Assembly (NCBI RefSeq): GCF_964204645.1
Contig: NC_134026.1
Location: 27,748,150 to 27,812,149, forward strand
Direction: 5' to 3'
Source: Tubulanus polymorphus
Taxonomy: Eukaryota; Animalia; Nemertea
Length of the DNA stretch: 64,000 nucleotides
The first letter of the stretch is position 1; the number at the start of each line of letters is the position of its first letter. A program made the translations under genes and the position numbers. The notes beneath the pieces were generated by a model, which made no database searches, was not told the DNA's origin, and saw only the letters and a program-made list of their open reading frames with translations. Positions 3,852 through 41,730 of this stretch are shown here, in pieces.

Positions 3852-4042
3852 GGGACTTGTCACAATTGATAGTGAATGAATATAACCAGTATCAATGACC
3901 AACCCCAGTATCCCTGTATAGTAAAAAAATACAGGGATGCAGTTTTTTTGTTATACTACAGGGATACTGGGGTTGGTCATTGGATACTGCTGGTTTTATA
4001 TTCTCATTCACGACACTACACTATCAATTGTGACAAGAACCC
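3852..4042. mobile_element. Foldback MITE, possibly PIF/Harbinger-like
   Basis: GGGACTTGTCACAATTGATAGTG at 3852 is inverted at 4019-4042. There is an inner inverted pair (ATGACCAACCCCAGTATCCCTGTA / TACAGGGATACTGGGGTTGGTCAT). ACA flanks both ends (3849-3851, 4043-4045). Confidence 0.7.
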
Positions 4043-4089
4043 ACACCACGTCGACCGACAGAATAAGGACCTTTATCTTCGCTATATTT

Positions 4090-4337
4090 ACCTCAATCTT
4101 CGGTACAATATGGAGAGTCCGATATTTCTACTAAGTCCACAGAATAACCACTTGATTTCCCAGATAAAACGTATCAAATTTCCTACGGTTTATCACGTAG
4201 CGAGAAAGCCTAAAATGACGTCACTATTATGGGAATCCTCTTTTGCGAGTTGATCCAAATTCTCGGAGCCGCCCTTTATCAACCAAGGAGCCATCCTTTC
4301 CTCAGTATATTGAATTGAATTGAATAGAGCAGAAAAT
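4090..4337. promoter_or_regulatory. Putative bidirectional promoter between WSB1 and eIF2D
   Basis: Divergent start codons lie <1 kb apart. CRE palindrome TGACGTCA at 4216-4223; CACGTA at 4194-4199; a minus-strand splice donor (TTACC on +) near 4090 suggests a WSB1 5'UTR exon. Confidence 0.5.
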
Positions 4338-7300
4338 ATGTTTACAAAACCTTTTAAAATCAAGACACAAACTGCCATACGTGGTTCAGACAGGTGAGGA
4401 AAGGATTAAGATTTTGTTATTCTCTAGATCATCCTGGAAAAATTGGCATTTTAGATAAATGGAACCCCCAAAAAATAGAAAATACCCGAAATACCAATCA
4501 ATTCAAATTCAATTTAAGTATATTGTACCTACTAATTGACTTGATTGAAGGAAAAAGTTGCGAAATGATGTGGCGAAGTTTTTCTCTGGAATACCGAGTG
4601 ATATAGTACCAGGAAATAAAGAAGAGATGACCATCATGAAAATCTATACGCATGCAGGGGAAAATGTCACTGTTTATTGCTTACATCGAAATCCAATCTT
4701 TTTTGAAACAAAAGATCACCTTTATCCTACAGGTAGGCCGAGAAGAAACAATGCTTTTTTGAACTATATCTAATTCATCTAGAATTCTGTTTGAAGATTA
4801 TTCTTTTTAGTCTTTTTACTGTGAAATATATTAGCTGAAATCTTTTTAGTTTATACAATGTGGAAATATCCAGGCATTTTACCAGTTTTTACAACTTGGC
4901 CGCCAGTCATAAAGAAGCTACAAGCAGGCGCAGGTAAGAATTATTGATTTAGTTAATTTGATTATTCAGAATGATTTCATTCAATTGAAATGTGATGAAA
5001 TAATTCTGCTTTTGAATTCTATATGTAATGAAGTCAGCTTGTTATGAATATTTTCTTTAATAGATTTAATGTTGCCGGGTGTGATAATAAAAGGAGCCAG
5101 AGATGCTAATTGCTTAGGAAAGATTGACAAAGGACAATTGTATGCTGTAAATTTAGCTGATAATAGGTATGTGTCGTTTAACCAGGTAAATTCCTATGTC
5201 ATGAATTTCTAGCTTTATATAGTTTTCTTCGCTCTTCTCATTATTCAGGGCTCCGATTGGTGTTGGTCTAACTGCCATGTCCAGTGAAGATATGTATATG
5301 TCGGCAATGAAAGGAAAAGGCGTTCTTATGGCGCATGTGTATAAAGATTATTTATGGTAAGATTATTGGAGTACTAAGTTATTCTTTCACTGCTCAAGTA
5401 AAATGATTTGATTTTTTATCTGACAGGGCTTTAGGGGATAAATCAGAACCTCCTGATATGGGAATTAGTGATGTGATAGTTGGCGACCTAAACCTTGAAG
5501 ATGATGACAATTTAGCTGTGGAAACTGTCAATGATCCTCTATCGATGTACGAAAATGGCCAAATACTCACTGACGTAACTGATGATCACTCACAAAATAC
5601 TGATAATATGGTGGGTAATCTGGCTGCTGCAGTTGATGAGATTGAAGTGAAAAATCATTTGTGTGTGAGCGAGCTACAAACTCAGCCAAACGGAGATGGT
5701 AGTTTAGAAAATCTTGAAGATATCACTGCAAGGGAGAATGAGGAAGAAATAAGTATTGATCCACAAGGTCAGAGAAGTTAAAAGGTTAACAAAAAGGTAT
5801 TTGTTAATCTCATCTAGTCATCGTCACATTGTATATTTTCAGTTGAAATGGATAATTTACTGTACCAGTGTTTGCTTCATGCCATCAAAGAGAAAATTAA
5901 TATCAAAAGGGGAGATCTTCCAATTTTGATGAGCACCTTTTCTAGTCAACATATGAAATCTTGCTGGTATGTTTCTATGAGTAATGTTTGACATAAGGAT
6001 CTTAAGAATTATTCACCGTGTTGATTCATGGTTATATTGATTTGTATTTTTAAGTCCAGCAGGAAAAACGCTTGATATAAAGAAATCTAGTTATAAAAAG
6101 GTAAAACAAATTTGACAGACAAACATATTGGAAATGAAATTTATGAAAAATATGACATTTCAAATTGGGAAATATCATATTCAGTGATAATTGGTTGATT
6201 CAATTTCAGTTCTCTAAATTCATGCATGAAATGCAAAAGAAGGATCTAATCCTCGTAAAAGAATTATCAAAAGGTGTAGAAAGTATTATTGATGTCAATA
6301 AGTTACATCCTGAGTAAGTTTGTTCAATGTTTCCATACATCTACCAGTATTGACTATATTTGCAAGTATTATACTGTGGAGTGTTTTTCAGTGTAAGAAG
6401 TTTCGTCATTCCTGATATTCCTGAATCTGTTGAAGAAGAACCAGATGAAGAGTCATATTCTCCACCGGAAATAGTCGAGATGTTTTCCGTCAATGGTGCT
6501 ACTCTTCCTTTCTTTAAAAATATGGGTTTCCAGTAAGTATTAGGGTATGCGTTCATTCTAGTTCATACTGTATAGAAACCTATAAAACTAATGAATGATA
6601 ATATTGTAGGAAAGGTTTGTCATTGTCAGCTAGTGAAATACGAAAAACAGTCACTGATTATGTGAAATCAAATGAGTTACAAGATCAGAATAATCGCAGG
6701 TTGGTTCATCAATGTTTATTGCTGGTTATTTTATCTACGGTAAACTGATTTATACTGAATAAGTATTTTGACCTTTATAGTCAGGTTATTCTTGATGGCG
6801 TTTTATCGGATTTGGTGCTATATAGGGGGGAACAGGTGTCTCATGTGAAATGGGATGATCTCTTTCATAGGTAAGTAACTGTGTTGCAAGTTAATGTAAT
6901 GAAGGTGTTTTAACTTTGCTCGCTACACAGACTCTCTTCTTTCAGACTCTCGTCAAAAATGGGTCCGATGCATTTAATAACCTTCCCTGGACAGAAACCT
7001 CAACTACATAAAGGCAAACCAGAACCTGTTAAAGCGTCGATCTCTCAAAGAGGAGGAAATAAGAAAGTCTCTTTGATAGAAAACTTGGAACCATATGGTA
7101 TCGACCCACAAAAGTTTGCTCATGACATACAGATCAGTTTAGCTTGTAGTACATCCGTGAGTCCATTACCAGGGAAAAATAGAGGTCAACAGGTTCTTAT
7201 ACAAGGAAATCAGTTAGCTCATATCTTACAACTTCTCAAAGGTATTCATCATTCTATTATCAAATGAAATTAAAGGTGAAGTATATGTACGGTATTCATT

Positions 7301-7398
7301 ATATAGAATTTTGAACTTTTTCAGGCAAATATCAACTGAAGGACAAGTATCTCTCTGGGTTTGAAAAAGCAATAAAACCAAAGAAAGGAGCAAGATGA
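4338..7398 (+). CDS. EIF2D: Eukaryotic translation initiation factor 2D (ligatin), multi-exon
   Basis: First exon MFTKPFKIKTQTAIRGSDR then RKKLRND; PUA-region GADLMLPGV; DIKKSSYKK; SWIB-like SEIRKTVTDYVKSNEL; SUI1 domain RGGNKKVSLIENLEPYGID...QVLIQGNQ; last exon ends GFEKAIKPKKGAR-TGA (7396-7398); short GT-AG introns. Confidence 0.93.
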
Positions 7399-7749
7399 TT
7401 TCTTGCACCGTATGGGAAATTTATATAAATAAAATGGTGTTAAGTTTGATTCAATATTGCTTTCATTTGTTATCTATTAGTGTTCCATGAATACATTCAC
7501 CCAACACAAAGATAATTTTTCCTCGGGTACCCTAGTGATTTGGATGAAGTCTCTTTAAAATCACACGTCGTGGTGGTTTGAGGATTTCCTCGGAATCCGG
7601 ACAATACTTTAGTCTACAGTGGCCATTCAAAGACTTTGGCAAGCGATCATGAGCAGTTACTATATCTATCGTGGGCGGCAATCACTATAAAGTGCCACTG
7701 CTTTCTCTGGACTAGATTTCCTGGAAAATGCTTACCTACCACAAACCAT

Positions 7750-7921
7750 GCAGTTGGCCAAAACCTGGTTAAAACGAACATCATGGAGAACAAATGTTTG
7801 TTATAACCGACAGTTCATTATCCAGTATTGAAATTATCCCTTTTGGAACGATATTCTTGGTTTGTAATAAATAACCAATAGATTGTTATACCCGAGGTCG
7901 TTATAACGAGGTTCAGCTGTA
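7750..7921. mobile_element. Degenerate Tc1/mariner (pogo/Tigger-like) MITE remnant
   Basis: Right end GTTATAACGAGGTTCAGCTG-TA (reverse complement TA-CAGCTGAACCTCGTTATAAC). Left end is degraded. Resembles the element at 60335. Confidence 0.45.
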
Positions 7922-8580
7922 CCCAATTTCGATAATGAAAGGAGTGGAAGAATTGCGTTTATCTCATCTTGACAATGGCATCCTCTGAAACGGATCTCAT
8001 CCGGTATCTGTTATTCATGTAGTGAACTGGATCCATAGTTCCACTTTCTCAAGACGTGCGATCATTTACTGGGAATTTCTCATTTGATTCATTGAAAAAT
8101 TAAGAGGTTTCTTTAAATATTTAACTTTTGATTTTATTTTAACAAAATTTACACGCATACAGAATCCTATTAAATTCAAGTGCATCACTTCGCAGTGAGA
8201 AAACCTGACACTCAGTAAGGAATGTATATACCTGTATTTCAACAACTACCGTATCGTCAAACTGACTGTGTAATTGTACATGTACTGCACGTTTGTATAC
8301 ATAGTAAAAACACTATATACCGTTACGTACATTCAGAAAATAATGATTGGTTTATGTTCGAACCTCATAAAAACTTGGTTAGAATTATGAATTATGAGCG
8401 CTACAACAGTTACAGTCTGAACATGAACCATGCTTCGATATAACATAAAACAATTTACAATTTGATTTTTATATAATATTGATTAATTGTAGACCAATAT
8501 GAGTGGATACTTGAGAAAATTGTGGACGCTATTTTTTGAGATACCTAGTGAGAGATTAACTTGAAAAACCGAGAACAAAA

Positions 8581-11034
8581 TCATTTGGAATTCAAACTCC
8601 AGTCATAGTGCAAGTATGAGATTTTGTAATTCTTTTTGTTGATCAGTTCTTGTAATTGTAATTTCTTATCGCCAGTGCTCATATGAAAACATATCCACTC
8701 AAGCATCTGAAAATACAAGTCATATGAACTAGTGATAGTTTTTCGGAAACCGACTCAAATCTTTAACTATCAATTACATTAACTCTATCTACCTCTTCAT
8801 CATTTTGGCCGAAGTCTATCTTATACCAATTGAAAATCTTGGAGAGATTCACCTTGCTTTTAGATATATCTATGCTGACGCCTTCATCTCCTTCAAGAAA
8901 TGCTTCAGTAGCAAGTTGCAACTCATTGTCAACATCCTTGAAATGCCATTAGATATTAGAACAGAATGTATTATTAAACAACTGATCCAGGGCTATTTCA
9001 CAGAAAGACAACATTTTAGTGTTACAGTTTCCTAGTAATGTGAGAAATCCCACTATAACGAAGCCAAGATTGAAAAATTCTATATCAGAATGATTATATT
9101 TGAGGAGCGACGTTTCGGCTAACAACTGTTAGCCATCATCAGGTGTACTGACGCCAGATTTCTCTCGTTATCATCATACACGGATATTGTGTATCTTCTC
9201 GTCTTTTCCTAAGAACGTGTTATCATTACGAATGAAACTTCAAGTTGTACTGAGAATTCGACCTCTGGTAATTATAGCATTTGCACACCGTTTTACTCAC
9301 TTGAGTTGAATAGGTTTTAATAGGAGGACAGCTCTTGGCTCCACAGACAAGTGCAAAGTGTATTTTTGGATCTGCCTTATCAAGAGCTATATTCAAGCGT
9401 GGATCATTTTGACCAAATGGCTTTGAAATCATACCTAAAATAGAAAAACAGTGTCATGAATATTTTGCCAAAAAGGTACATGTAATTTTAAAGCAAGTAA
9501 TGCATTTTTCTATTAGAAAATTGTCTTACCCATTCCTTTACGATTGCCTCTCAGAACACCATTTTCAATAGCCTGTAGTGAATATTCACTGCCACCTATC
9601 ATATACTTCACAGTGTTGAAAAACTATAAAACCAGCATTATAGTATAAATATGTTTCTCTGAAGATGGCAGTTGTTGATAAATTTGAACTGAAAACTGTA
9701 CCTTCCATCTTTGCCAGAGATTTACTGGAGGACCTTTCACCACAGTAGCATGAATTACAAGTGCATTGTAGACATTAATGAAAAATGCCAGTGTTTCCTC
9801 TCGACTCAAACTGTTCATGTTTAATCGCTGTAACTCTTGTGTAAGACGCACATATTTTTGAAATTCGGGACTTTTACCAATTCCTTTATAGTCCACTGTC
9901 TAAAATTGAATACATGTATCATGAAACGTAATAAGTAATACTTAATCGAATTAAGAGTTTTTGTTAAACTTTACCTTGCCATCTTTAGAAAGATGCTTGG
10001 AATAGATTAGCAATATCAACTTCCTCAAATTTTCACTTAATTCACCAGCTGTAGGAAAAGAGCAGAATGCAGAGTTATTATTTCTATTTTGAGCAATCAT
10101 TCAGAGATATAAGGGAGGTTTACCTGAGCTAACCTTGCATTCAGAAACAGAACCAGAGTTAAGAGCCAATGAATCATCATCCTCCATTAGACGATAATAA
10201 ACGTCGCTGTCTTGAAAAATCTCCTCTTTATGAACATTATGACCAAAATGTCTATCAATAAGTTGCTGTCCCATTTCTATTGCTGTTACTCTCTCTACAA
10301 ATAGTAGAAAACAGCAATGATTTCAAAATCTGAAGCTTGAAAAGTGAATCACTGTTTAAGTCTCAAATATGTTACATACCCACATTTTTAGTATTGACAA
10401 CCCAATCAACAAATTTCTTCCCAGAAAATGAATTCTTATGCACAGTTAAAATACCAGACCGGTTATCTTGTATGAGACCACTTTGTTTCAGTTCCGTCAC
10501 AAGTCTTGCATATTCGTCAGGTTCACATATAAAATCACTTGGATCTAAACAAAAATAAGAATCTATTAGTTTAAGAAGCTAATGCTGAAATTATATAAAT
10601 TACATCAATATAATATACCATGAGAGGATACAGCAGTGCTAGGATCTGGTATTTGCGGAGCATCAGGTGGGACAGTATTATTCTTTACATCTTCTACTAA
10701 TTTATCAAAAGCTTTCTTTTCTTTAACCTAAAAAAGGCGTAGTACATAACAAGAACTTAATACATGTGTACTAACAGAATAAAGAATTAAAGGTGTATTA
10801 GGCCCACTATCTTACCAACTTCTGGAGGTCATCATTTCCTCCAATATATTTGGCATTGAAGAATATCTGAGGTACGGTCTTTTTGCCTGTTCTTTCAAGC
10901 ACATACTGTCTACATTGTGGAAAGATATCAAGACTTATATCAGTGTAAGGCAGAATGAATTGTTGAAGTGTATTCTTGGCTGCGATACAGTGAGGACAAC
11001 CAACTATGGAGTAAATCACAATGCGCCCCTTCAT
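8581..11034 (-). CDS. Glutaredoxin-DEP-DUF547 multidomain protein (class IV glutaredoxin architecture), multi-exon
   Basis: Grx domain MKGRIVIYSIVGCPHC...TGKKTVPQIFFNAKYIGGNDDL; DEP-like HKNSFSGKKFVDWVV and HFGHNVHKEEIFQDSDVYYRL; DUF547 LAFFINVYNALVIH, IENGVLRGNR, DPKIHFALVCGAKSCPPI, LSKIFNWY, YDWSLNSK-TGA. Confidence 0.88.
9107..9146 (-). ncRNA. Minimal hammerhead ribozyme motif (Penelope-type), degenerate stem I, in an intron of the Grx gene
   Basis: Minus strand reads CAC-CTGATGA-TGGCTAACAGTTGTTAGCC-GAAAC-GTC-GC: conserved core boxes, perfect stem II (GGCTAAC/GTTAGCC), palindromic ACGT stem III, GUC triplet. Confidence 0.65.
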
Positions 11035-11669
11035 TATCACTTCTGAAAATTAGAAAACAGAATCATATTTTTTCTGGATTAGACATAATTTTGTTTCTAT
11101 TTCAAGCATTAATTATCTCTTCAACGCAACTGAGTGACAACTCTATTGATTGCAGGGTAGGGCAGTTATTCTGTAGTAGTAGTAGACTCTCTCTAGTCTG
11201 GTCTGGCAGGCTGGCAGATCAGATCAGCAGTCAGATTAGTTAGTTACCTAATCGTTGGTGGTAAGCTTTTTATAATCGGATGGGCTTTGAAAATATCCGA
11301 TCGTGAAACTAAACCACAGACAGGTCACTGACTCTACTATTAGTCAGATCAGTTATCCTGCTATAAAAAGTTGCTAAATTCTTATCAATTGTGTTTCTTA
11401 CTTGATTGTAGCACTGGCTAGTTGTAAAACAAATCAATTAACACTGAAATACCTACTCTCAATCTCATAGTTGTGAGCGTCGCTAACAAGTTCTTTTGGG
11501 TCAATAAAAAATAATTGAATTGAAGTGCATCCGTCCGCTAGGGTTGTCATTCTTCCAAGACGAGTTTGTCGATGACGTCATATATAAATAATAACAAACA
11601 CGTGCGTACTCTCCGTACCAGTGTCGGTGATAAAGAGTACAATCGGAGAACGACTGTACATAATCCCTT

Positions 11670-11980
11670 GATTCAGAGTAGTCCTGATGCTGAATATAGG
11701 ATGTACAGGGGTATCCCGGGTTCGAATCCAGTTATTACTGATACTGGTTTAGAGTGGTCCTGACTGAGGCTGAGATGCTGGAACACAGGCCGTGTGTCTC
11801 TGGGGTTTGAACCCGGCCGAGTACTCGTGGTCCTGATGCTAAATAGAGGATGTACAGGGGTGTCCCGGGTGCGAACCCAATAATTACTGAAAGTGGTTCT
11901 GGAATGGCCCTGATGCTGAATAGAGGATATACTTTGGGGTGTCCCGGGTTCGAACCATGTGAATACTGGTTCGAAACCAT
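11670..11980. repeat. Degenerate tandem repeat with GGGTTCGAACC (B-box-like) core; dispersed family
   Basis: Repeated GTCCTGATGCTGAATAGAGGATGTACAGGGGTGTCCCGGGTTCGAACC. Related copies at ~43550-43690 (same orientation) and ~56310-56410 (inverted). Confidence 0.7.
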
Positions 11981-12490
11981 ACATATTTAAACCGTCAAGT
12001 GCTGCCCCTATACATATCGTTGACGGTGAATATATGAACTACCTTATTACTCGCGCGCCGCAGTAGGATAATTGAACTATCAGTTAGTTCACAAATTTAC
12101 CGCTTATGATACACAAGTGGCAGCACCCAACAGTAAATGACCGACTGTATGTACTGAAAAAGAAATGAATAGATTCGTAATCAAAAGTGAGAGCCATCAC
12201 AGGGTTCACTCACTCAATCACACTACCGATCACAATTTGGGGCTGCTCTTATTGGCGTTTCAAATTATACCCTCTGAAATTACATCCTTCATCTGAAATA
12301 TTTCTGTTGGTTTTAAACATGGGTCAGTGGTGCTGTAATGTTTTTTTTCCCTAAATTTATGATCCATTAAATTATTTCATCTTCAAATCAATATCACCGA
12401 GTAGGCCAACCCCTCTTCACAATCTGAAATGTAAAAAAAAGAAAAAGACTTGGGGCAAATTACCAAGTCACGTGAAATAAAAAAGCGAAA

Positions 12491-12560
12491 GCTGAGCAGG
12501 CAGGACTCGAAACTGTGGTCTCCGGTTTACCAGGCGGGAATTTTAACCACTACACTATAG
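12491..12560 (-). pseudogene. tRNA-Asp-derived pseudogene or SINE head
   Basis: Minus strand TAGTGTAGTGGTTAAAATTCCCGCCTGGTAAACCGGAGACCACAGTTTCGAGTCC resembles the eukaryotic tRNA-Asp body (TAGTATAGTGG...CCCGCCTGTCACGCGGGAGACC...GTTCGATTCC), but stems and anticodon are broken. Confidence 0.55.
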
Positions 12561-12812
12561 ATCTGTGGTAATCACTCGGGTGTGCAAGTTTGTCTGGTAT
12601 GTGATTTCGTATGTGTTCAGTTTGCTTAAAATCTATTTTCAGAATGCATCTTAAACAGTTTGTCAAACGGATTAAGTTAAACAGATAACTGGGGTAAACT
12701 GAGGACACATCAGTGTGAATATTTGCGTGGATTTGAACCAAATGGAATTTTTTTGTGGCGTTGATCAGGTTCGAATCCCATCAGAAAATGATTTTCTAAA
12801 CTTGGCGGTAAT

Positions 12813-12914
12813 ATTGGTACTTTTCATTGGTCAGGATCAGTGACGTCACACTGTCAGTATAAAAACTCAGGTCAGCTGATCCCTCTTTCCAGTTCGGCCA
12901 TTTTTCAGGTAAGC
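12813..12914 (+). promoter_or_regulatory. Canonical Pol II core promoter and first non-coding exon inside the giant element
   Basis: ATTGG (inverted CCAAT) at 12813 and 12826, CRE TGACGTCA 12841-12848, TATAAAAA 12858-12865, Inr-like CCAGTT with A at 12891, donor CAG/GTAAGC at 12908/12909. Confidence 0.65.
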
Positions 12915-14445
12915 AAACGTCATCCATTTTATTTATTCATTTCGATCAAATTCATTTTATTAATCTTACTTGTAAATGTTATACATAGACCTTAGGTTTC
13001 GCACACGAGACAATTTCCAAAGTTCCGAAAGTTCGGATTACACTATATAGGTGTTTAATTATGACATTTCCATTGTGACGTTCCTTTTGCTCAAAATTGT
13101 CCAAATTGTGTTTTAAATATTTAGAATTAAATTACAACATTTGATTTTCAATTTAGCTCTCGTAATAATGAAGACGTTATTGTGATTTTATTGAGGAAAT
13201 GGAAATTTATCAAATTTATTTATGAAATTTTCAGTTTTTCTGGTGTTCAAATCTACGCGCTAAAGCGGCTAGTTGACATGCCTAGGTGTAATACACAGAC
13301 AGCTCAGTCTATTCAACCATGACTCGAATCCATAGAATCCTTTCATTCGAAACGTCGTTCAACTTAATTCTGGTGGCTTCTATATCTAATATTTGAAAAT
13401 AATGATGCCCAATAATTTAATGTTAATTATATTATCATTCAATATAAAGAGTTAGCTATTTCTTAGAATCAATAATTTTTGATTTTCTTGATTTTAATAA
13501 CATTTGTTTTACATTGCAGTAACAGCAGCAGTTAATATAACCAGCGACAGCAGCAAGACAACATCACCAATTGAACATTCCAACTACCAAACTACGAATA
13601 CCACAACTACAACTATATTACAACTCAACAGGACACCATGTCAACCAAATCAGACATTTTCTTGGGACTTCTAAAATTGGTGCGCGCCGAGGTCCTGACC
13701 TTGGATGCTGAATCCCTCGGCGCGTTTTTTGATTTGAGTAAGTACAAACTTTACTTCATCAATCTTAATTAGTTCATCTTGAGTATCTCGAATTCTTTTT
13801 TGACAGACATCTCAAATTATTTGATTTCTTATATCTGAAATTATTTGATCTCAAATTCACAATTATTTTATCTCAAATCTCGCATTATTGGATTTCCTAA
13901 ATCTCAAATTGTCTCAATTATTTCGAATATCATCAATTTGAAAATCTAATATCATCTAATGTCAATTTCATTCAATCCTCTTTAATTTTGGAAAACTCAA
14001 TTTATGTCTCACACTGATTTAATTTTGAAAATATCATTTTATGTTTCTAGTCTTTTATTCTATTTCAAATTTCAATTGTTCGAGTATAAATTTTTCGTTT
14101 TGACAAATGTTGCAATTTTGTCACCACTCTTAAACTCGATTGAATTTGTTAACAAATCTAATAGTGAATAAAGTTTGATTTGAATTGAATTGAATAGCGA
14201 GTAGAGGCTCTGGTGGATGAGAATTAACTTGAGGAAGTAACTTCATTTCCTGGTTGGTTTCAAATATCGTCGAAATTTTGAAATATTCCTCATGTTATTC
14301 ATGTGAATGCTGTGTCCAGTCAATAGAGAGTTACAACATAAATAGTTTAGACTGTCTAGGCCTCCAGACCAATGCACTTCATAGAAAATCCTGATTTATG
14401 TTTGATAAAGCAAGTAATTGGACTGCGCAGTTCAGTCCATTTAGT

Positions 14446-15221
14446 CACAGGGGTTTGGCGATGGGCTTGGATTTTATTTCCGGGTTGTTGATAATCTCGC
14501 GAGAATGGCGCTAAATATGAACTGCAAATAAATTCAAAATATCATAGAAATACCTTGTGTTTATATTGTTTATTTATCCGCCATTAAGTTCCGATAAACA
14601 ATTGGTCGTTAAGGATCATTATCAGACGGTCGTCACGCTACTATATAAAATAACAAGGGATGAAACGCAGTTCAATTCATGCCAGCCAGAAAGTTGGGAC
14701 AGTCACGTGACAGTCGCGCTTCTTATTTGAATGAATGCAAACCCGAAGCATCTAAGATGGAAACTATGATACGAAAAATATTTGAGATTAACTTACATTC
14801 AAATGCATTTTTTTTCTATGAATTATATATTTGATCACAATTTATTCTTTATAAATTATTAATTTCATATGAATCATAATCTGACAATTGATACCGGTCT
14901 GTGAATATGTTAACTTTTCATGTTAAAGTTTTAAATGTGATGACATCATCAGAATGTCACGTGACTGTCCCAACTTTCTGGCTGGCACAACTCTGAAGGC
15001 GTTTCATCCCTTGTTCTTTTATATAGTAGCGTGACGACCGTCTGATAATGATTCTTAACGACCAATTGTTTATCGAAACTTTATAGCGGATAAATAAACA
15101 ATATAAACACAAGGTATTTCCGTGATATTTTGAATTTATTCGTAGTTCATATTTAGCGCCATTCTCGCGAGATTATCAACAACCCGGAAATAAAATCCAA
15201 GCCCATCGCCAAACCCCTGTG
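14446..15221. mobile_element. 776-bp MITE with ~267-bp TIRs and 8-bp TSD (P-element- or hAT-like)
   Basis: Arms 14446-14712 and 14955-15221 are near-perfect inverted copies beginning CACAGGGGTTTGGCGATGGGC. CATTTAGT directly flanks both ends (14438-14445, 15222-15229). Confidence 0.9.
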
Positions 15222-15229
15222 CATTTAGT

Positions 15230-15520
15230 CAGTAAGCAGACTTCAGTTTCCCTTACAGTTTAGTCCATATTTTAATCAGTAACTGGACTGGCCGGGTTTA
15301 GTCCATAGTGTATTTAGTCAATAACTGGACTGCGCGGTAGTCCATAGTTAAGTCAATAACTGGATTGCGGTTTAGTCCATATTTTAGTCAATAACTGGAC
15401 TGCTGTGTAGTCCATCGTTTAGTAAATAACTGGACTGCGGTTTAGTCCATAGTTTAGTCAATAACTGGACTGCGGTTTAGTTGATAGTTTAGTCAGGAAC
15501 CGGATGGCTGTTTAGTCCGT
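15230..15520. repeat. ~34-bp minisatellite (TTTAGTCAATAACTGGACTGCGGTTTAGTCCATA)
   Basis: About 8 degenerate tandem copies. One more unit lies left of the MITE at ~14410-14445, so the MITE interrupts the array. Confidence 0.8.
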
Positions 15521-15944
15521 ATCCAGATACCTGTCACAGATACGTTTAAATACCCGTTTAGATACCGCTAAAAAGCACTAATTTTTACGGTACTTTCGTT
15601 TTTCTCTGCGACTCCAGGATCCGAAAACATGTGATTTTTTTTTATTAATCATTCATCAATCGTCAGGAAATTCAGGATCACTATTTTTGATTGATTGGTT
15701 AAACTTTGTTCCTGGTATCTCAAGGTAGTTGCTCAAAACAGTTTGAGATCCCGAGATTATGGCGGGAAGGAGGTATATCTCGCAACTGCTATCATGAGCT
15801 TATCTGCGAACTAGTCTCAAGCCACACCCACTCAATGTTTATACTAGATCTAAACTGATGTTTGTAACGAATGTCGTTCACTAGCTCAGCTCATAGTCTG
15901 AATCTTCATCGTCTTTTTTAGCTGCACCAAAGCATACGGTCCCA

Positions 15945-16125
15945 GTGGTTTAGTCAGTATCTGGACCACAGTTTAGTCAGTATCTGGACCACAGTTTACT
16001 CAGTATCCGGATGACAGTTTAGTCAGTATCCGGATGACAGTTTAGTCAGTATCTGGACCACAGTTTAGTCAGTATCTGGACCACAGTTTAGTCAGTATCC
16101 GGATGACAGTTTAGTCAGTAACTGT
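15945..16125. repeat. 22-bp minisatellite (CAGTTTAGTCAGTATCTGGACCA-type)
   Basis: About 8 tandem copies alternating between CTGGACCAC and CCGGATGAC variants; related to the 34-bp array. Confidence 0.85.
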
Positions 16126-19100
16126 GAGATTTATTTCGTTCTGAGACCAGATTTTATCAAATTTCCTCTAGCTGTTCTTCAGATAGGCCTACCCTTTGAC
16201 TTAATGTTTAATTTTCAGAATTCTATTATTTTCTTAAAGTAAAAAGTATTTCCTCTACCGTTATCCAGGCCTGACATTGATCTAGGTCTATCCTGTTTTA
16301 CACCTTACAAGTTCGACGTGGACATTTCGTATTGTTTTTTCTGTAAACGGCTGCAGCTGTATTTATAGTGAATTATTCCACTGAATGATTCTATACTTGA
16401 AGGGTAAGTAGTGACTTAATTGAAATACTTAATGAATTCATGTGAAATAGGCCTAATTCTAAATATCATTTATTGTTCGCTGTTTAATGATGTATGATTT
16501 TTGATAGATAAAAATCTTATCATTATTTGTAGTGAATGGATTTAATTGTATGAAAGTACAGCAGCGGACAGTATGGTGTGAAATGGTTGTTACCCCTAGT
16601 GGTTGTTTCTGAAAATAAAAGTTGAAGTTTTTTGTTTGATGATGAAAATACAGAAGATATTTGAATGAAATTTTTTGTGTCGTTTTTCTGTTTGTCATGA
16701 AATGAAAATGAATTAAACTTACTTAGCAAAAACCATAGGGAAATGTGCAGTAATCGAAGGAAATATCACAATTTTTGGAACTAAAATTTGGTGAAAATTC
16801 ATTTTAGATAAAAATCTTTTCAAATGTATCGCATTTTATTGGATTTTTTGCCCTTAATGATACTGTAGACTTTGCTTAAACTGGTAGACGGTCTATATCT
16901 GGTATAATTTGTTCAATTCGATGAAATAAAGATATGTTGTTTTTCAACACATATTTCCCGTTTTCTGGTATTGCTCTGTTCGATGATAATAATGATGATA
17001 ATATTATGGGTCTAATATAGACCTAAATCCAGCAGCTGCTCAGGGCGCTTCACATTTTCCCTTTTTTTGCCCCAGCCGATCACTTCAGTTCCGTTTATTC
17101 TCTGCCTAAATCGGTAAACTGTAATGGCTGTTCGCCTATATTATAGAATACGTGTATGTACTATCAACCTTCTATCTCTGTTAGCAAAAATACATAAAAA
17201 CATAAGAACATCTTTACGTATTTTTGCTGTTAGTGATTAGGCCTTGTGTTCTATTAATGCACACGCATGACTCAAACTGGTCATAGTTTCCATTACTCAA
17301 CGAGGACGTCACAAATGGACTGAATCGGAGGAAAATGTTGCGGGATAAAGAAACATGAAATGTCCAGTCTATTGAAGCACTTGTGTCTAGTATATTATCT
17401 CTTTCAGCGCCCATGTGAAATAAGAGAAAAACCCATCATTGTTACCTAAAAAGTAGGAAAATCAGTAGAATCTTTGGAGCTCCGTAGAGTGAAAACTGTA
17501 AGAGCTTTATGGCAATTGAAAAGTTTGTAGGGTATGACCCTTGGAAAATTTTGGTGATAATTTTTCTTACTGGATGTGACGTCCTATGCAAATGAGCTAA
17601 TTTGCATAAATTATAATCGGTGACCTATTTATTTGATAACCCCCCTAAATTTCAGGTATCAAAATGAACAAATCGGGTATCTAGCCTCAGCTAACAGCTG
17701 ACAATATGTAATATTCTATGTCTACAGTCAGAAATATATATTGTATGGGTAAATTGTAATTAGAAAATGAGCTAATGATTAAACGACAGGGCACTGTACG
17801 ACCTGAAATAATCCGTAGACGAAAGTGGACTGTGCTCTGAAAGAGTTATAGAAGGAATTTGGGGATTCACTACATGGTCAGATTGTATAAAATACAAAGA
17901 AATTGATAATTGTGACCGCTTATAGGCTCAATAAATCTTTTTATCAATTGATTTTTGCAATTCTTAAAAACCGGTAACTGCCTAATTAGGTAAAAAATGA
18001 AGGTGCCAAACTGTAGCGGATTTTAGGCGGAGTCTACTGCATAATGAATACCAGTTGAAATGGCTGTGCATGGAATTTTGTTGATCTGAATAAATCAATG
18101 GCTGGTGTAAGATTATACATTCTAGGTAAGTTATATAATGAATATGTGGAGTACCGATAGGCCTATTGCTGACAATGAATATTCTATTGGGAATAATGAA
18201 TTACAGCCATTTGTGGTGATAGTTAAATATTGTTCTTCAAAATGAATGTTTTTTATTTGTAGTGAGTGTTGTTTCTGAAGGTGCAGTAGCGGGCAGTTTT
18301 GTGTGAAATGGTTTTTACTGGTTTTAGATTCAGGGAAGTGAAATTATTTATGTCGTTTTTCTGTTTTAATTCATGCTGTAAATAGTTTAAACAATAAAAT
18401 ATAAAAAAATCAGTCATAATTTTATCTTCATTTTTGAGAAAATATAATGTTCACACTTGCCTCATGTTCAGAGGAAATAAAATGCAAATTCTCCCACTTA
18501 CCGTGGATGGAGTGTGGCCCTGTATGCAATAAAAAAGTGTTCTACAAAATAATTGAATAGATTTCTGAAGTGTGGACACATTTTTCACACATCCAATCGA
18601 AAAGTAATTACTGAATAAAAGGAATTATCGATTAATTTTTTGTTGATACAGCGCGACATCTGTTTTAAATGAGATCTTTTATCGTTGCAAAGTTTTCGTT
18701 TCAATTGGTTGATAAATGATACATAAATGAAAAGTTATCATGCGTGTCATTCCAAAGAGTTCCCAGATTTTGAAACAATGGTCATGGGTTAACAATTCCA
18801 TTGATTATTCATTATAATGTATAGTTTTTGTCACTTGGAACGTCATCACCCCGAGACAAAAAATCAAGTGTATTTTTGATTCATGATTTGCTACCAAAAT
18901 TGATTGTCAAGGTTGTAGGATGTAATTTATTACAATCAGTAGTTCCAGTAATGAATTAACAAAAGTGTAAGTCGCCAGCAACTTGCAAAGTACCCGTCCA
19001 CGTACAGGGTTGGTTCTGAAATATATAAGTATATAAGACATAAAAATACCATTATAAAATGTGTATTGAAAGATTCAATTATCAGCCTCACTGATGATAT

Positions 19101-20724
19101 ACTGTCGACTTATCGTTATTATGTAATGGATGATGCAAATCATGAGAGCGGTAAAAAGTGTAGTTACAACAGAGTAAGTTGTACAACCGTATCGTGCAAC
19201 CAGTGATATGATCACTTCTCACAAAATAAGCTTACGATCACTTCCAAACGTACAAATGACCCTTCTTACCCAACTTTCTTCTTTGTTGCCATCACGTCAC
19301 ATTCACCTATTGGATAACTGCATCATTTTATAGGTTAATATCTACAAATACGATAATTATATGCGAACATGTCATTATGTCATTTATGTGCAATATGCAT
19401 GATCCTTAATGTTTTTTTTTTTCATTCCAGATTTAGACATCATTCAAAATATAAAAAAAGACCAGTCTGAAGCAGCCCGCAGAGCCCTTCCAGGATTGGA
19501 AGACCATTTCAAAAGGTGCGTAACATCTATCTGCGGGCCTAAGGAACCAACTCTTCCTGAAATAATACCACCTTTTGAGTTGGTTCCTGTGCAGGAGGTG
19601 GACCCTGCTTCTCCTGTAAATGTGGAGCAGGAGGTCACCCCTCAAGTGGTGACCCCGGCAGAGGCGCCACAGCTTCAGACGCCTTCACTGCATCGGTCGC
19701 CCCGTCGAAATACAAAAGAGATAGATTATACAGAAGGTACAGGGCGTCCGAAATCCAAAAAAAAGGCAAACGTGCAGCTCGTCCTCCCCCACTTCCGCAA
19801 CCAAATTTTGAGGAGGAGAGCAGTGATGAGGAGGAATTCGCCACTCCTGGAGCGCCACCACCAGGGCCCGCAACACCATCACCTCGCGATGATGATATTA
19901 CTCCACCACGACCACCACGACAACCACCTACAACTACTACTAATTCTACTACTACTACCACTACTACCACTACTAAGAAAAGACGACCACGACCACCTAC
20001 TTCAACTCCTACTAATACTACTACAACTCCGACAACTAGATCAAATAATACAAGAAATAGAAAAAGAAGACTTGAAGATGAAGAAAGTGATGATGATTAC
20101 GAAAATAATAATCGGCATCGACAGCCCAGGCATCGACATCGGGCGCTCCAAAGGGGCCACCACCTTCCCCCGCTGTCGAGCTCATCGCGCGCGGCCCTGG
20201 TTGGTCACGAAACATCGAATATAAAGATCCTATTTAAATGCTCCGTGACGTTGAAGGGGCCTTTAAAGGCAAATATGAATTAGTTAAACGCAGGCGAACA
20301 CATTAATATAATATAGCCCCTTCACTCGCCATTACCCGGGCAACAACATCAGCCCCTGCACGTCTGCAGATCGGCACTTCTTGAAACTCAGTTTTCCCTT
20401 CCTCCTTCGTCGATCTGCAGGTTGCGCAGTGTTAAATATCTGTCAACACTCCTTGAACCAGTGGGCGTGCAGTCCTTCCTTATTTTTATTTGAAAAAAAA
20501 TATGAAAAAATAAAAACCAGCCTTGTAAATATGGATTTTATGGAGTTTTACGGTTAATCTCCAAAAAAATTTAAAAAGATAAAAATTTAAAAAAATTCAT
20601 AATCATTTCATCAATTTATTTATTTTTTGGATAAAAGGAAATTTTTATCCATCATCTCATTCATATACATTTTATATCATTTATTTATTTCTTTTTTTTG
20701 ACTGTACGTCCCACTGTGTTCCAC

Positions 20725-21092
20725 ACCATTTTTGTTCCGACCCATATTCATTAAACAGCTCCTAGTAGCGTAGATTTAACTCCATTCAGTATTAGGAAAA
20801 AATGGAGACAAAGTCAGGAAGTCGTGAGACAATTCTGGCATCAGTGGATTAAGGAGACATGACCTCAACTCAGTGTACGCAGAAAATGGTATTCTACAAG
20901 TCAAAACGTCAGCGTTGGAGAGGTAGTCTTAGTTATCGACAAGGATACTCCTAGACGTCAATGGAAGTTAGCAACTAATGCGCAGGTTTATCCAGGAAAG
21001 GACAATCTCATTTGAGTTGTAGACTTTAAAACCGAGAAGAAAGTCTACAAACGTTCGATCGGAAGCGTGTGTCTACTTGAGTTGAACTGTTT
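20725..21092 (+). pseudogene. Decayed BEL/Pao retrotransposon C-terminal (post-integrase, DUF5641-like) fragment
   Basis: Translates as RKKWRQSQEVVRQFWHQWIKET*PQLSVRRKW...VGEVVLVIDKDTPRRQWKLA...YPGKDNLI*VVDFKTEKKVYKRSIGSVCLLE, the same motif order as the C-terminus of the intact element at 46643. Confidence 0.8.
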
Positions 21093-21164
21093 AAAGAACT
21101 AAAGGGATTATGAAATGATCGATTCGAGGAAACGGATATGCGTTAAGATTCATTGTGCTTCTCA

Positions 21165-21500
21165 CAGTGCTGAAGCATTTACCATCTTTGCTTCTACTTT
21201 GCAGTAGTAACCATCCATACCACCTGATTGTGGAAGTAGCCTTCTTAGGAGTCATCTATCCTAATCCTATGGTCAGCCTTTTCAAATGTCTTTCGGGATA
21301 TAGACCATCCTTACTACTACTTCTATTACAACACCTTATTATTAAGGTTCATTTTGCTTCTCATGATGCTGAAGCATTTACCATCCTTGCTACTACTTTG
21401 CAGCAGTAACCATCCATACAACCTGATTGTGGCAGTAGCCTTCTTAGGAGTCATCTATTCTAATGCTATGGTCGGCCGTTGTAAATCTCTTTCGAGATAT
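21165..21500. repeat. Direct duplication of a ~135-bp segment (period ~197 bp)
   Basis: TGCTGAAGCATTTACCATC...CCATCCATAC.ACCTGATTGTGG.AGTAGCCTTCTTAGGAGTCATCTAT occurs at ~21168 and ~21367. Confidence 0.75.
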
Positions 21501-21564
21501 GCAGGGAATCAATTCCTACAATAACTCCCATGGAGTTTGAAAAAAGTGGATTTTTCAAATCAAA

Positions 21565-21735
21565 AGGAACAGCTATGATTCACATAATGTGATTCTTTAT
21601 CGAACTTTATCGGAACATGGAGAAGGAATAGCTATGTTTCACACATAATGTGTTTCCTTATGAAGCTGAAAATAACATGGAGAAGGAACAGCTATGTTTC
21701 ACATAATGCGATTCCTTAGGAAACTACATTGAAAC
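21565..21735. repeat. ~59-bp tandem repeat, 3 copies
   Basis: AAGGAACAGCTATGTTTCACATAATGTGATTC recurs at ~21564, 21623, 21683. Confidence 0.75.
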
Positions 21736-22369
21736 ATATTGTTCAATGTTCCATGTTGCCCCTCCCCCCAAATACTATGACGTTTATACGTCAATGTAAA
21801 ACCATTATATCGTTATTAACATACTTGTTTTTCTAATTACAGAATTAAAGATTAATTTAATATGACATGAAAACTTGAATGATTGAAATGTTAATATCTA
21901 ATGCTCAATGACGGAGGTAAATCCTTCACATGTGATCGGAGGGATTTAAAATGTTTACTCATAAGGAAAAGGAATATATATTTATATACGTGAGATTGCC
22001 TGGATTAAAAATTGCGCAAGAAAGGAAACCACAGCAAAGACTACGGTAATCAATTTCATTACATTTCTAAGATGTGAAACCATCACCATCTGGATCGGTG
22101 GTCAATGCATGAATTTATGAGTTCATAATTGAACATAGGATATAATGCTAAGATCTGCAAAAATGCAATGATTAAGAATCTCTGATAAAGAAAGTATAAA
22201 ATAAAGATCTTGGATTGGAAAGTTTGTTGTTATCAATCACATTAGTGATTGGCTTTTATTGATTGATATTGATCTCAACTGATTCTAACGATCACCAGGA
22301 TCAAGGGTTGAGTTCAAAATTCTTGTTAATAATTAGTCTTAATTAATCTCTTGTTGAAATCAATAAGGC

Positions 22370-22530
22370 ATATGAGAGAGGAGGTTCAGGGAGGTATGAG
22401 AGAGGAGGTTCAGGGAATATGAGAGAGGAGTTTATGGAGATATGATAGAGGAGTTTATGGAGATATGATAGAGGAGTTTAGAGAGATATGAGAGAGAGAG
22501 AGAGGAGTTTAGAGAGATATGATAGAGGAG
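22370..22530. repeat. GA-rich minisatellite (TATGAGAGAGGAGGTTCAGGG / TATGATAGAGGAGTTTATGGAGA)
   Basis: About 7 tandem 22-24-bp units. Confidence 0.8.
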
Positions 22531-23464
22531 ATAGTCTAAAAGGAAAATTGTTAAGTTCATAACAATCGATCAACTCAGTAATAGACACCGCTCTGATATA
22601 GTAACTCCTGGTCCTTGATTAGGGTCTAAATTGCAGGAATTGCGTTTAGCCATTGAAATATGGTTGATAGAGCGTGGAATTGTTTCCATTTAGGCAAGCA
22701 ATGCATAAAACACATGTCAGATTAAGGCTGTTGAGAGTGAATTATCAATAGATTTAAGAAATCGAGGATGAAGTTGTTTTCAAGAGGTCGATCATTCATA
22801 TGGTTGTTAATCAGATCAGGTTCTCAGGTGCTTCCTTCGTCCCCAAAAACTGCATAAGTTGTATCAAAGTATGTGATATAACCTACTAATTGATTATATG
22901 AAAAATGGCTATTTTTAGTTTCTCAGCCACTTTGCAATTATTGTTGTGAAGAGGTCACAAAATCCAAACTTAAACCAGCATCATCAATAGATTTCTACTG
23001 ACTGAGACCCGGTCATACTGCACATGTTGAACAGTTTGTTGTATTTTTGTGGTACCAGTTTCTCACGTTCCAAGATAGAACAAAGTTCCTAAATTTTGAG
23101 TCCTTCAGTGCTGAAATTCCAATTTACTACAAACTTCCTAATCTTAACTTTCCAAAAGTTTAAATTTTTCCTAATATATCTCTTGTTGAAGATTTCATTC
23201 CAGTTCTCAAAATTAATTACGGTTTTTGAATATCTGCGAAATATCATTAATTATTTTCCTGGTTTCATTTTTACTATTGCCCAAAAGCATATTTTATGTG
23301 AATTATTATCGCTATTATTGGATTCTTTCAATGATGTTTTGGTTTGATATTATGATTGATCAAGGTGATCCATCTAAATCTATTACATTGGTATGAATTA
23401 TGAAATATTCATATCTGCAAACATTTCATTGATACTTCTAAACTAGTAATTCTGAAAACACTCT

Positions 23465-23865
23465 AAAAACTATTTTACCCGTATTTTTAGGACAATTGTA
23501 GAAAGTATTTTAAATTATCTCAATTTTAAAGTATCTATAATATGTAAAACTATTTTATTTCAATTTTAAAAAGATGGAAGAGACTATTTTATATCTGAAT
23601 TTTAAAACACCTGTGATATCTAAAAACTATTTTATCTGAATTTTAATCTATTAAAGAAACTATTTTATATCTGAATTTTAAAATACCTGTGATATCTAAA
23701 AACTATTTTATCTGAATTTTATACTATTTCATTTGTATGTATTTTATCTCAAAGTATCTTTTTAAACTATTTTATTTGTATACATTTAAAAAACTATTTT
23801 TTTTGTTTATATTTAAAAACTATTTTATTTTTTATATTAAAAAACTATTTTGTTTGTATACATTC
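23465..23865. repeat. Degenerate AT-rich tandem repeat (AAAAACTATTTTAT core)
   Basis: Core recurs about 10 times with variable spacing. Confidence 0.65.
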
Positions 23866-24249
23866 CTTTTAGAACAATGATTTATTTGTATTTCAATACT
23901 AACTAAAAGATCAATTTAATGAAATATTTTATATTTGACTATCACTGTGTATATTCGAAGCCCAGTGATTTCATGAGAATGGAATAACTGAAGGTCCAGG
24001 TTTTATCACCGAATACTCTTTGACACAATTACGTGGTCCACAACACAGATATAAATAGTGGTTATATAAAAGGCCCATGTTGTATATAGTGCACGCATAA
24101 AGAGCTTTTACTCGCAGTTGATATAGGCTTAGTAAATATGAAATGTGATTGAGAACGTTTTCTCATACTTTCTTTACCTTTGTAGTTTTTTTCAATTTTT
24201 ATTAATTCAGTGAATTATCTACTCATTTTCAGTTGGTGTTTCACTATCA

Positions 24250-24418
24250 TGGAATGCGATGAATAAAAAACAGTCCGAGTGTATTTTTCATATGATATTT
24301 TCAGCGTCCCGTCGTATGAAATTTTGAATTTTTAATTTGATGTCATCTCAAGAAAATATATGACTGAAAACATCATATGAAAAATACACTCAGATTGTTT
24401 TTCATTTATCTCGTTCCA
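24250..24418. mobile_element. Small foldback element
   Basis: GAGTGTATTTTTCATATGATATTTTCAG (~24277) is inverted as CTGAAAACATCATATGAAAAATACACTC (~24364); imperfect pairing extends to TGGAA...TTCCA ends. Confidence 0.6.
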
Positions 24419-24889
24419 TACAATACAGGACTCAGTTCCACAGTTTGATTTGGATACAAGAATTTAGATACATATTTGTTGCATAACTGTGGAACTGGGT
24501 GTTGTTAAATTGTGAGCATGATGTTTATGATTAATCACTAGTGCGTTTTGAACTAGATATTAAAACTTTGGTTTCAAGTTAACCTTAGTTTAGATTAGTT
24601 GGTTTTTGTTTAGTTATTTTAGTAATTTTCGCTGTTTATGAATTTAATTCGTTGCAGTTGATTTAAGTCTAATTTAGTTAAAGTTTTAGTTCATTTAGGT
24701 CAAGTTGATTAAGTTTTAACTATAGCTGTTAACTTAATTAAAGTGTAAACCTCTGATAAACTGAGGGTCAATTCATCTTATGATAAGTTACACTCGGGTA
24801 TATTAATCAATAATCCCGTTTAAGATCTCCTTTTTTTATGTGGTTCGGAGATTTTCACTGAATAAAATAGTAACATCTTAGAATGTGAT

Positions 24890-26170
24890 GAACTGAGGGT
24901 AAATTCATCATTGTTGAAATCACTCTCAGGATCATCATTAAAACAATGAATGAACTGAGGGTAAATTCATCATTGTTGAAATCACTCTCAGGATCATCAT
25001 TAAAACAATGAATGAACTAAGGGGAAATTCATCATTGTTGAAATTACTCTCAGGATCATCATTAAAACAATGAATGAACTGAGGGTAAATTCATCATTGT
25101 TGAAATCACTCTCAGGATCATCATTAAAACAATGAATGAACTGAGGGTAAATTCATCATTATTGAAATTACTCTCAGGATCATCATTAAAACAATGAATG
25201 AACTGAGGGTAAATTCATCATTGTTGAAATCACTCTCAGGATCATCATTAAAACAATGAATGAACTGAGGGTAAATTCATCATTGTTGAAATTACTCTCA
25301 GGATCATCATTAAAACAATGAATGAACTGAGGGTAAATTCATCATTGTTGAAATAAGTCTCAGGATCATCATTAAAACAATGAATGAACTGAGGGTAAAT
25401 TCATCATTGTTGAAATTACTCTCAGGATCATCATTAAAACAATGAATGAACTGAGGGTAAATTCATCATTGTTGAAATTACTCTCAGGATCATCATCAAA
25501 ACAATGAATGAACTGAGGGTAAATTCATCATTGTTGAAATCACTCTCAGGATCATCATTAAAACAATGAATATACTGAGGGTAAATTCATCATTGTTGAA
25601 ATTACTCTCAGGATCATCATTAAAACAATGAATGAACTGAGGGTAAATTCATCATTGTTGAAATAAGTCTCAGGATCATCATTAAAACAATGAATGAACT
25701 GAGGGTAAATTCATCATTGTTGAAATTACTCTCAGGATCATCATTAAAACAATGAATGAACTGAGGGTAAATTCATCATTGTTGAAATCACTCTCAGGAT
25801 CATCATTAAAACAATGAATGAACTGAGGGTAAATTCATCATTGTTAAAATTACTCTCAGGATCATCATTAAAACAATGAATGAACTGAGGGTAAATTCAT
25901 CATTGTTGAAATAAGTCTCAGGATCATCATTAAAACAATGAATGAACTGAAGGTAAATTCATCATTGTTGAAATCACTCTCAGGATCATCATTAAAACAA
26001 TGAATGAACTGAGGGTAAATTCATCATTGTTGAAATCGCTCTCAGGATCATCATCAAAACAATGGATGAACTGAGGGTAAATTCATCATTGTTGAAATCA
26101 CTCTCAGGATCATCATTAAAACAATGAATGAACTGAGGGTAAATTCATCATTGTTGAAATTACTCTCAGT
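24890..26170. repeat. Homogeneous 62-bp tandem satellite, ~20.5 copies
   Basis: Unit GAACTGAGGGTAAATTCATCATTGTTGAAATCACTCTCAGGATCATCATTAAAACAATGAAT; period 62 (24891, 24953, 25015...). Very few variants (ATCACT/ATTACT/ATAAGT). Confidence 0.97.
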
Positions 26171-27091
26171 TCATTGAGGATATTTTAGCGTTAACACCAG
26201 TTTTAATTACCCCACTGTTTTCTTGTTATTGAAAGTAACATCACTAGTTATAAAATATAGATGATTAGGTTTTTTATTGTTCGATGAACTTGCAGTTAAT
26301 TAGATTGATTAATAATACAATACTCTCAGGTCATTGAAACATAATCTTTAATGTTATCTTAATTTTAGGGATCTAGGGTTTTACGCTGAAATAGATTATA
26401 AATGAATGAAACAATGGAATTTTAAATCAGTATTTTTTCGTTACTGTTAGAGAACTTTTATTTAGTTTTTAGGCTTTTCACTTTTTGGTGTCTCTAGATT
26501 CTAGTTATTTTCTAAAATATTGTTGAAATTTTGTTGTGTTTTTTTTAATCGATTTTAAGCTTAAGTCCTAGCAGGCTAGTGTATTCGCTTTTTATCCGTT
26601 GTTCGACTGGCAGAATAGAATCAAGATGGCGGACTGGTAGCCATTCTTGTTCGGCACTTTTACACAGTTTTTAAGGGAGGTTTCAAAGATTTCTCCAACA
26701 TTTGATGTTTGATACCGATATTTATCCCCCATCATTATTAGAAATATTGGGTTGCTTTAACTTACAGTCATGATGTTTGATAATTGTTAGCATTGTCATA
26801 GGACACCATTTACATGGAATCAGTCTTACCCCATTTTCTATTCTTCCCATCAGGGGTATTGAATTCATACAATTTTTCCATTAGTTTTGGTATTTATGCA
26901 TATAACCGTAATCAATTGCATATTTGTAGCATTGGTTTTTGTTATTTTTACCGGGGGGCATTAAATATCTTAATTGTCAGATTGTCAAGCATTTCACCGA
27001 GTGGGCATGGTGTCCCTGCACCTCTAGTTTATATCTTTTTTCACTGTTTTCAAGGTTCTCGTACACATTTCATATTTACATGCAGCTTTTT

Positions 27092-27478
27092 CATTCAATA
27101 TATATCAATGCCATCCTCGCTTGCCAGGTTTTAATTGTCGTCTGCCGAAGCTCATGCCAAGACAAACCCCGGTCGCAAACTCTTCATTGGTCTATTACGT
27201 TGTTCAAGATTGCTTGGGTAGTCAGGTTGCCACTGAGAGGCCACCAGTCTATATATCTAGCCAATCAGATACGTTGTTTTTCGCCGGCAGATTTGCTACA
27301 CATCTGATTGACTAGATGTAAAGACTAGTGGCCGCTTAGCATCAACCCGTCAACCGAAGATATCTTGGACAACGTAAAATACCAATTAAGGGTTTGCCAC
27401 CAGGGTTTGTTTAAGTGTGAAATTCGGTGGGCGACAATAAAACCCTGGTGATTGAGGATGTATCGATATACATATGAA
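27092..27478. repeat. Old diverged palindrome (decayed foldback element)
   Basis: Left and right arms (~180 bp) are inverted homologues: plus-strand KPRSQTLHWSITLFKI...LRGH mirrors minus-strand KPWWQTLNWYFTLSKI...LSGH. Inner pair ATCTAGCCAATCAGAT / ATCTGATTGACTAGAT. Confidence 0.65.
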
Positions 27479-41720: not shown

Positions 41721-41730
41721 AGATCAGATT

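Follow-up and report, generated by a model that had tools for sequence, protein, structure and literature searches.

A 64,000-nucleotide stretch of the Tubulanus polymorphus genome (contig NC_134026.1, positions 27,748,150 to 27,812,149; hereafter the window, in whose own numbering all coordinates are given) contains a mobile element of 33,490 bp (11542-45031), which carries, 1.3 kb inside it, a three-exon orphan gene with its own promoter and polyadenylation signal. The gene appears to be a resident of a multi-copy family of such elements, the present copy having probably decayed by two small frameshifts in exon 3; to this explanation as a whole we give about an even chance, and its parts are graded separately where they are discussed.

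The large mobile element with defined ends is confirmed. It lies between exact 9-bp target-site duplications (11533-11541 and 45032-45040), and both occurrences of this 9-mer on the plus strand of the window are the two element flanks, with no third. The left terminal inverted repeat (TIR; 11542-11607, plus strand) is 91% identical over 69 columns to the reverse complement of the right one (44963-45031, which together with the right duplication makes up the minus-strand feature 44963-45040); both start with GG, and no tandem substructure was seen in the 69 columns. A Pfam scan of 150 of the 217 stop-free stretches of at least 48 aa in the element, the other 67 being excluded as lying inside satellites, detected no transposase and no viral gene, though small exons would escape such a scan. 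The only match above the curated cut-off was a retrotransposon remnant, the decayed 3' part of a BEL/Pao element (20797-21087, plus strand; DUF5641, E 5e-11), located just downstream of the gene. The element would be non-autonomous, its movement depending on a transposase from one of the superfamilies whose insertions leave duplications of 9 bp. Its ends fit Merlin at least as well as Mutator, and neither seems assignable without the transposase.

The gene begins with an RNA polymerase II promoter layout (12813-12891, plus strand) comprising two ATTGG boxes at 12813 and 12826 (CCAAT in reverse orientation, spaced by only 13 bp), a cyclic AMP response element (CRE), TGACGTCA, at 12841, TATAAAA at 12858, and an initiator-like motif, CCAGTTC, whose A at 12891 lies 33 nt past the TATA box. 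The non-coding exon 1 (12891-12908, plus strand; 18 nt), the start of which is placed by the initiator-like motif, is followed by the donor CAG/GTAAGC, ranked first among the 771 GT sites of 11600-24880 by splice matrices that are small and host-trained (13 host donors and 12 host acceptors). Exon 2 (13520-13737, plus strand) follows the acceptor TTGCAG and consists of 118 nt of leader and 100 nt of coding sequence that opens with the ATG at 13638, which stands in the context ACACC-ATG-T; the complete leader of 136 nt has no upstream ATG. The exon 2 donor, TGA/GTAAGT, ranks only 23 of 771; its 9-mer also serves as a real donor in the host, at 6314. Intron 2 (13738-19430, plus strand; 5693 nt) contains a MITE-like inverted repeat (MITE, miniature inverted-repeat transposable element) and two short tandem arrays; all ten candidate internal exons within it have a stop in the incoming frame. 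Exon 3 starts at 19431 after T11-CATTCCAG, and the acceptors of exons 2 and 3 rank 27 and 31 of 704 AG sites. The polyadenylation signal AATAAA is found at 20509-20514 (plus strand).

Scored by host codon usage, exon 2 reaches +9.0 in the frame of the ATG, against -11.4 and -12.4 in the others, and the G+C content is 0.43-0.50 in the coding parts versus 0.29-0.34 in the introns. Of 100 shuffles of the window, 6 contained a CRE with a TATA box; once the exon 1 donor was required as well, no shuffle among 100 showed the pattern, nor did any of 300 sequences simulated from a Markov model of the element, these patterns having been fitted after the sequence was seen. A reading of the same DNA from sequence alone (hereafter the sequence-only reading) had described the promoter motifs, the three exons with their splice sites and ATG, the AATAAA signal, and a spliced gene inside a giant element; all of these are present as described, and the layout of the gene is very likely real.

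Evidence for further copies comes from three DNA runs of two samples from one study (X1, X2 and X3), in which 1072, 632 and 497 contigs, respectively, were aligned to the gene cassette, 382, 245 and 192 of them being less than 95% alike; all 30 bins were covered. The variants number in the hundreds, are 90-99% alike and extend across the promoter, exons and introns. No more than 10 contigs stand at any place, and at many of the listed places every contig is unlike the window (the rows listed are 40 of 626 substitutions, 12 of 162 indels and 24 of 2267 pieces). This is more variety than two haplotypes would give, and the cassette is therefore probably multi-copy; that the gene is shared by many element copies is quite likely. 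The AATAAA signal is kept in an X3 variant contig that departs from the window just downstream. An X2 variant contig diverges from the window at 20489, and other copies may differ beyond this point. A fourth run, X4, presumed to be RNA, gave no aligned contigs, a result that speaks neither for nor against expression.

Exon 3 falls into three parts that read in three different frames. Splicing of exon 2 to 19431 is phase-compatible, as the sequence-only reading had it, and gives an open reading frame (ORF) of 297 aa that stays in frame A and ends in a Leu/His-rich tail. This product contains no KKRRPR, RNRKRR or EEESSDEEE and no acidic or Thr-rich tract. The acidic, Pro/Thr-rich and basic tracts that had been ascribed to the protein are out of frame with that splice, KKRRPR, RNRKRR and the acidic tract being located in frame B (19579-20283). 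The frame A part proper (19431-19764, plus strand) encodes two predicted helices and then a Pro/Glu/Thr-rich disordered stretch, and ends at a run of eight A (A8; 19757-19764). It is followed by the frame B part (19765-20110, plus strand) with the acidic, Pro/Thr-rich and basic tracts, and by the frame C part (20112-20237, plus strand), 41 open codons to a TAA, which is the probable C-terminus in other copies. The frame switches are near the A8 run and near 20110, both in simple repeats (A8 and a short AAT repeat).

Codon usage, trained on the host and compared among frames over the same span, follows these parts. Frame A scores 7.6 over 19433-19594 (the others -33.3 and -27.7), frame B scores 13.1 over 19765-19905 (-4.2 and -46.8) and 12.9 over 19982-20110 (3.8 and -77.2), and frame C scores 6.8 over 20112-20234 (-11.4 and -6.9). 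Ser/Thr-Pro pairs likewise pass from one frame to the next: before the A8 run, frame A has 5 within 54 aa and frame B none, and after it frame B has 6 within 152 aa and frame A 2. The frame A tail beyond the run, in which 59 of 152 residues are I, L, M, V or F, needs no selection to be open, since frame A stays open past A8 in 42% of codon shuffles and 13% of synonymous resamplings. At seven variant positions in 19711-19741 the variant codons are synonymous in 2 of 6 cases in frame A and in none of 5 in frame B, while after the run there are two variants, one favouring A and one B. In the deepest of the listed contigs over 19982-20245 (X2 and X3), 262 letters correspond to 264 of the window, a net shortening by 2 nt that would make frame B continue as frame C. 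Codon usage, the continuity of Ser/Thr-Pro sites and the variant contigs together indicate that one protein of about 300 aa is most likely split over three frames in this copy, which is likely frameshifted and probably decayed. Two further candidates were set aside. A short intron mending the switch from A to B was sought among seven GT-AG pairs with a suitable phase, but no pair combines two good sites; an X2/X3 joint from 19642 to 19798, leading from frame A to frame B, was not counted, as one in three joints would do so by chance and the intervening letters are unread.

Several observations weigh against a decayed gene of a multi-copy family. Over 19595-19760 the codon scores of frames A and B are tied (3.0 and 2.4), and over 19595-19757 frame B is open, a state reached by only some 1% of the controls in which frame A was shuffled or resampled, and one that favours an alternative acceptor. 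One variant after the run, at 19855, is synonymous in A and not in B. The 2-nt shortening is the net result of 8 gap letters that could fall anywhere within 19982-20245, and the 12 of 162 indel rows listed do not show the A8 run of other copies. The distal ATTGG box is altered in one X2 variant contig. Contig depth is not copy number, and the multi-copy estimate was made without a single-copy control. Acidic and basic tracts of low complexity are widespread. Finally, no homologue was detected, also in the annotation of this species within the collections searched, and the gene may therefore be unexpressed.

The two coding pieces were folded separately with AlphaFold2 in single-sequence mode. 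The exon 2 piece gave helices at residues 3-21 and 24-32 with a predicted local distance difference test score (pLDDT) of 91, and the exon 3 piece gave helices at 2-18 and 20-34 followed by disorder (mean pLDDT 64), in agreement with the helical N-terminus proposed earlier. Intact copies would encode a protein in which an N-terminal module of four helices precedes an extended disordered tail, the latter carrying acidic patches, a pair of basic clusters and Ser/Thr-Pro sites. This anatomy suggests a nuclear, phosphorylated and chromatin-contacting protein. The hydrophobic spacing across the junction of exons 2 and 3 may, judged by eye, resemble that of helices 1-3 of the death fold. The death fold is a six-helix bundle and there are four helices here in total, from pieces that were folded and searched separately; neither Pfam nor PDB gave a death-fold match to the separate pieces, the candidate pattern itself spanning the junction.

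Homology searches, which used the exon pieces separately so that a domain across an exon junction could escape, revealed no family for this protein, in line with the sequence-only reading. Residues 1-112 of exon 3 in frame A yielded 40 candidates among proteins of 144-461 aa, none with E<=1, and frame B yielded 2671 candidates among proteins of 128-410 aa, none with E<=0.001. A phmmer search with a 110-aa piece against 1.84 billion representatives found nothing at E<=0.001. None of 240 pattern matches in metagenome contigs and none of 10 in viral contigs was confirmed, and a 22-mer of the TIR was absent from the metagenomes searched. The ESM Atlas gave no usable match (best 0.77); in PDB one query had no match and another gave E 0.51 in the disordered part. 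The gene pieces produced only sub-threshold noise in Pfam and PHROGs, with no match to DUF1985 or DUF287 in Pfam for any exon piece, and Rfam and tRNA scans gave no matches. The sequence-only reading had also considered a virus-derived origin; no viral hallmark gene or homologue indicating an endogenous virus or Polinton-like element was found in viral contigs, Pfam or PHROGs, and there is no sign of viral origin. Its view that the gene is not a host housekeeping gene holds to the extent that a single-copy housekeeping gene is improbable.

If the gene is a resident of the family, a Mutator- or Merlin-type transposase would move the elements in trans, and intact copies would be transcribed from the CRE/TATA promoter to give the protein of about 300 aa. 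The role we favour for this protein is that of an accessory factor that would promote expression or spread of the element, following a logic like that of the plant VANC proteins, to which it has no homology. Such an element-serving nuclear role is tentative, being drawn by analogy and standing below an even chance. The most far-reaching version of this proposal is improbable: a very large (>30 kb) cut-and-paste family with a selected and expressed orphan gene, whose product would be a nuclear factor acting on the satellite-rich interior, with a new helical domain, and an animal counterpart of plant anti-silencing genes.

The gene could instead be a captured passenger of the Pack-TIR kind, derived from the host and amplified by movement of the element without any service to it, its parent possibly being a lineage-specific protein with a death-fold-like N-terminus. 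Animal TIR elements do capture host sequence (PMC8277862). The promoter and introns of the gene are of ordinary host type, and the frameshifts show that selection has relaxed, at any rate for this copy. However, no parental protein was found in the protein searches, the death fold gave no match on the separate pieces, and captured pieces have a median length of 224 bp (PMC8277862), compared with 7.7 kb for the present gene. This origin is rather unlikely, but it is the leading alternative.

The copy could also be intact through a different acceptor at 19594-19595 (plus strand), ranked 3 of 704 AG sites, which would join exon 2 to frame B in an open ORF of 262 aa that includes the acidic tract and both basic motifs, with 19431-19594 being intron or part of a minor form. 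The rare openness of frame B over 19595-19757 speaks for this arrangement. On the other hand, codon usage marks the 19433-19594 segment as coding in frame A and its predicted fold has two helices, every one of the 19711-19741 variants would bring a radical amino-acid change in frame B, and frame B over 19595-19757 is devoid of Ser/Thr-Pro and has the Gly/Cys-rich look typical of off-frame reading. The frame C evidence would be unaccounted for as well, and we assign this alternative a low probability.

Still less probable is an intact locus in which the frame breaks come from errors in the assembly consensus or, with lower likelihood, from programmed -1 slippage at A-AAA-AAG. Both switch points are indeed in simple repeats, the heptamer is of slippery form, and a 3' hairpin of -16 kcal/mol can be drawn, without a shuffle control. 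But A-AAA-AAG is a weak slip site in eukaryotes, which counts against a slip; at many listed substitutions all contigs at the place differ from the window, so the window copy has private changes, and two independent errors in one exon would be needed. A chance assembly of motifs in repeat DNA, with no gene, is very improbable in view of the promoter-donor controls, the G+C contrast, the phase compatibility and the in-frame codon bias, despite the lack of a homologue and the lower ranks of the exon 2 donor and both acceptors.

The remainder of the element contains several other features. A perfect CRE palindrome is present in each TIR (11573 and 44992), adjoining a TA-rich box, and the element holds three of the five CRE sites of the window. 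Satellite arrays at 24888-26169, 29583-30333 and 31400-39600, with units of 62, 71, 153/159 and 97 bp, make up much of its right half. A second spliced-looking unit at 40820-42140 (plus strand) has four near-identical AATCAG/GTA donors and TTGTAG acceptors; when joined, its longest ORF is 83 aa, and it possibly specifies a non-coding RNA. Motifs at 26620-26640 and 27255-27330, which by eye we take to be YY1-like and CCAAT sites, suggest a further promoter in the element. A short dispersed repeat with the core GGTTCGAA, resembling a short interspersed nuclear element by eye, was found both in and outside the element (11676-11968, 43560-43680 and 56305-56393). The MITE-like repeat of intron 2 (14446-15221) has 270-bp arms that are 93-94% alike, and its summed contig depth is about tenfold that of the rest of the gene. 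Intron 2 also has strong donors at 16404 and 18126, and downstream of each stands one of two related 70-bp blocks (16523-16593 and 18253-18318, 76% alike); the candidate exons at these donors all contain stops.

Among known systems, the animal Pack-TIRs and Pack-MULEs share with this element a non-autonomous TIR structure with target-site duplications and a gene-like interior, the TIRs flanking non-transposon sequence (PMC8277862). Pack-TIRs form multi-copy families, one of them protein-coding (Ssk-FB4), but carry short fragments with an identifiable host parent (PMC8277862), whereas here a promoter-to-polyadenylation-signal gene for which no parent was found lies in a 33.5-kb element. The animal Mutator-like elements (Muta1, Aedes aegypti) have duplications of 8-10 bp, in agreement with the 9 bp here, and non-autonomous derivatives with mixed interiors; however, their TIRs are mostly longer than 100 bp (2 of 14 families have less than 60 bp) and the elements are about 3 kb (PMC5225508), while the present element has TIRs of 69 bp and is itself ten times as long, and no transposase was found in it. 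Merlin elements resemble it in having TIRs of 24-462 bp starting with GG, duplications of 8-9 bp and internal tandem repeats, but encode an IS1595-type transposase (PMC8101967), none of which was found in the element scan. The functional analogy drawn here is with VANC of the Arabidopsis VANDAL elements, a fast-evolving accessory gene that is also spliced and also lies in a DNA transposon whose interior abounds in tandem repeats; VANC proteins bind the tandem repeats of their own transposon and relieve its silencing (PMC5735166). Unlike the gene described here, which lacks both domains and any homology, has an animal host and is known from sequence alone, VANC contains DUF1985/DUF287 and belongs to plants (PMC5735166).

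The natural cargo of eukaryotic cut-and-paste elements is usually a few kb, according to a 2019 review of giant transposons (PMC6431247). In the literature searched, most subscription journals being outside its scope, there was no paper on this element or gene, and none on an element of 33.5 kb with a complete spliced orphan gene for cargo. Cargo-carrying TIR elements are already known. An element of 33.5 kb moving a complete orphan gene from promoter to polyadenylation signal would be a vehicle that spreads new genes. Should selection act on the gene in other copies, it would be a candidate animal transposon accessory factor; if all copies are decaying, the element would be an ordinary, though large, cargo-carrying non-autonomous one.

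The surroundings of the element in the window include host genes and an independent retrotransposon. The host gene for eIF2D (4338-7398) was mapped with the Tubulanus polymorphus protein to 14 exons separated by 13 short introns, one of its exons having matched the Tubulanus polymorphus protein with 100% identity over 85% of the query. The element is just upstream of a spliced minus-strand gene ending near 8000, which has, by eye only, a DEP/glutaredoxin-domain look. Two tandem rhodopsin-type G-protein-coupled receptor frames, the first shorter, are located at 52289-54838, and a BTB-BACK gene at 60519-62638. An intact and very young BEL/Pao long terminal repeat (LTR) retrotransposon occupies 46270-52183 (minus strand); it has identical 194-bp LTRs, a 5-bp target duplication and one stop-free frame of 1812 aa with matches to the Pao peptidase, reverse transcriptase and integrase.

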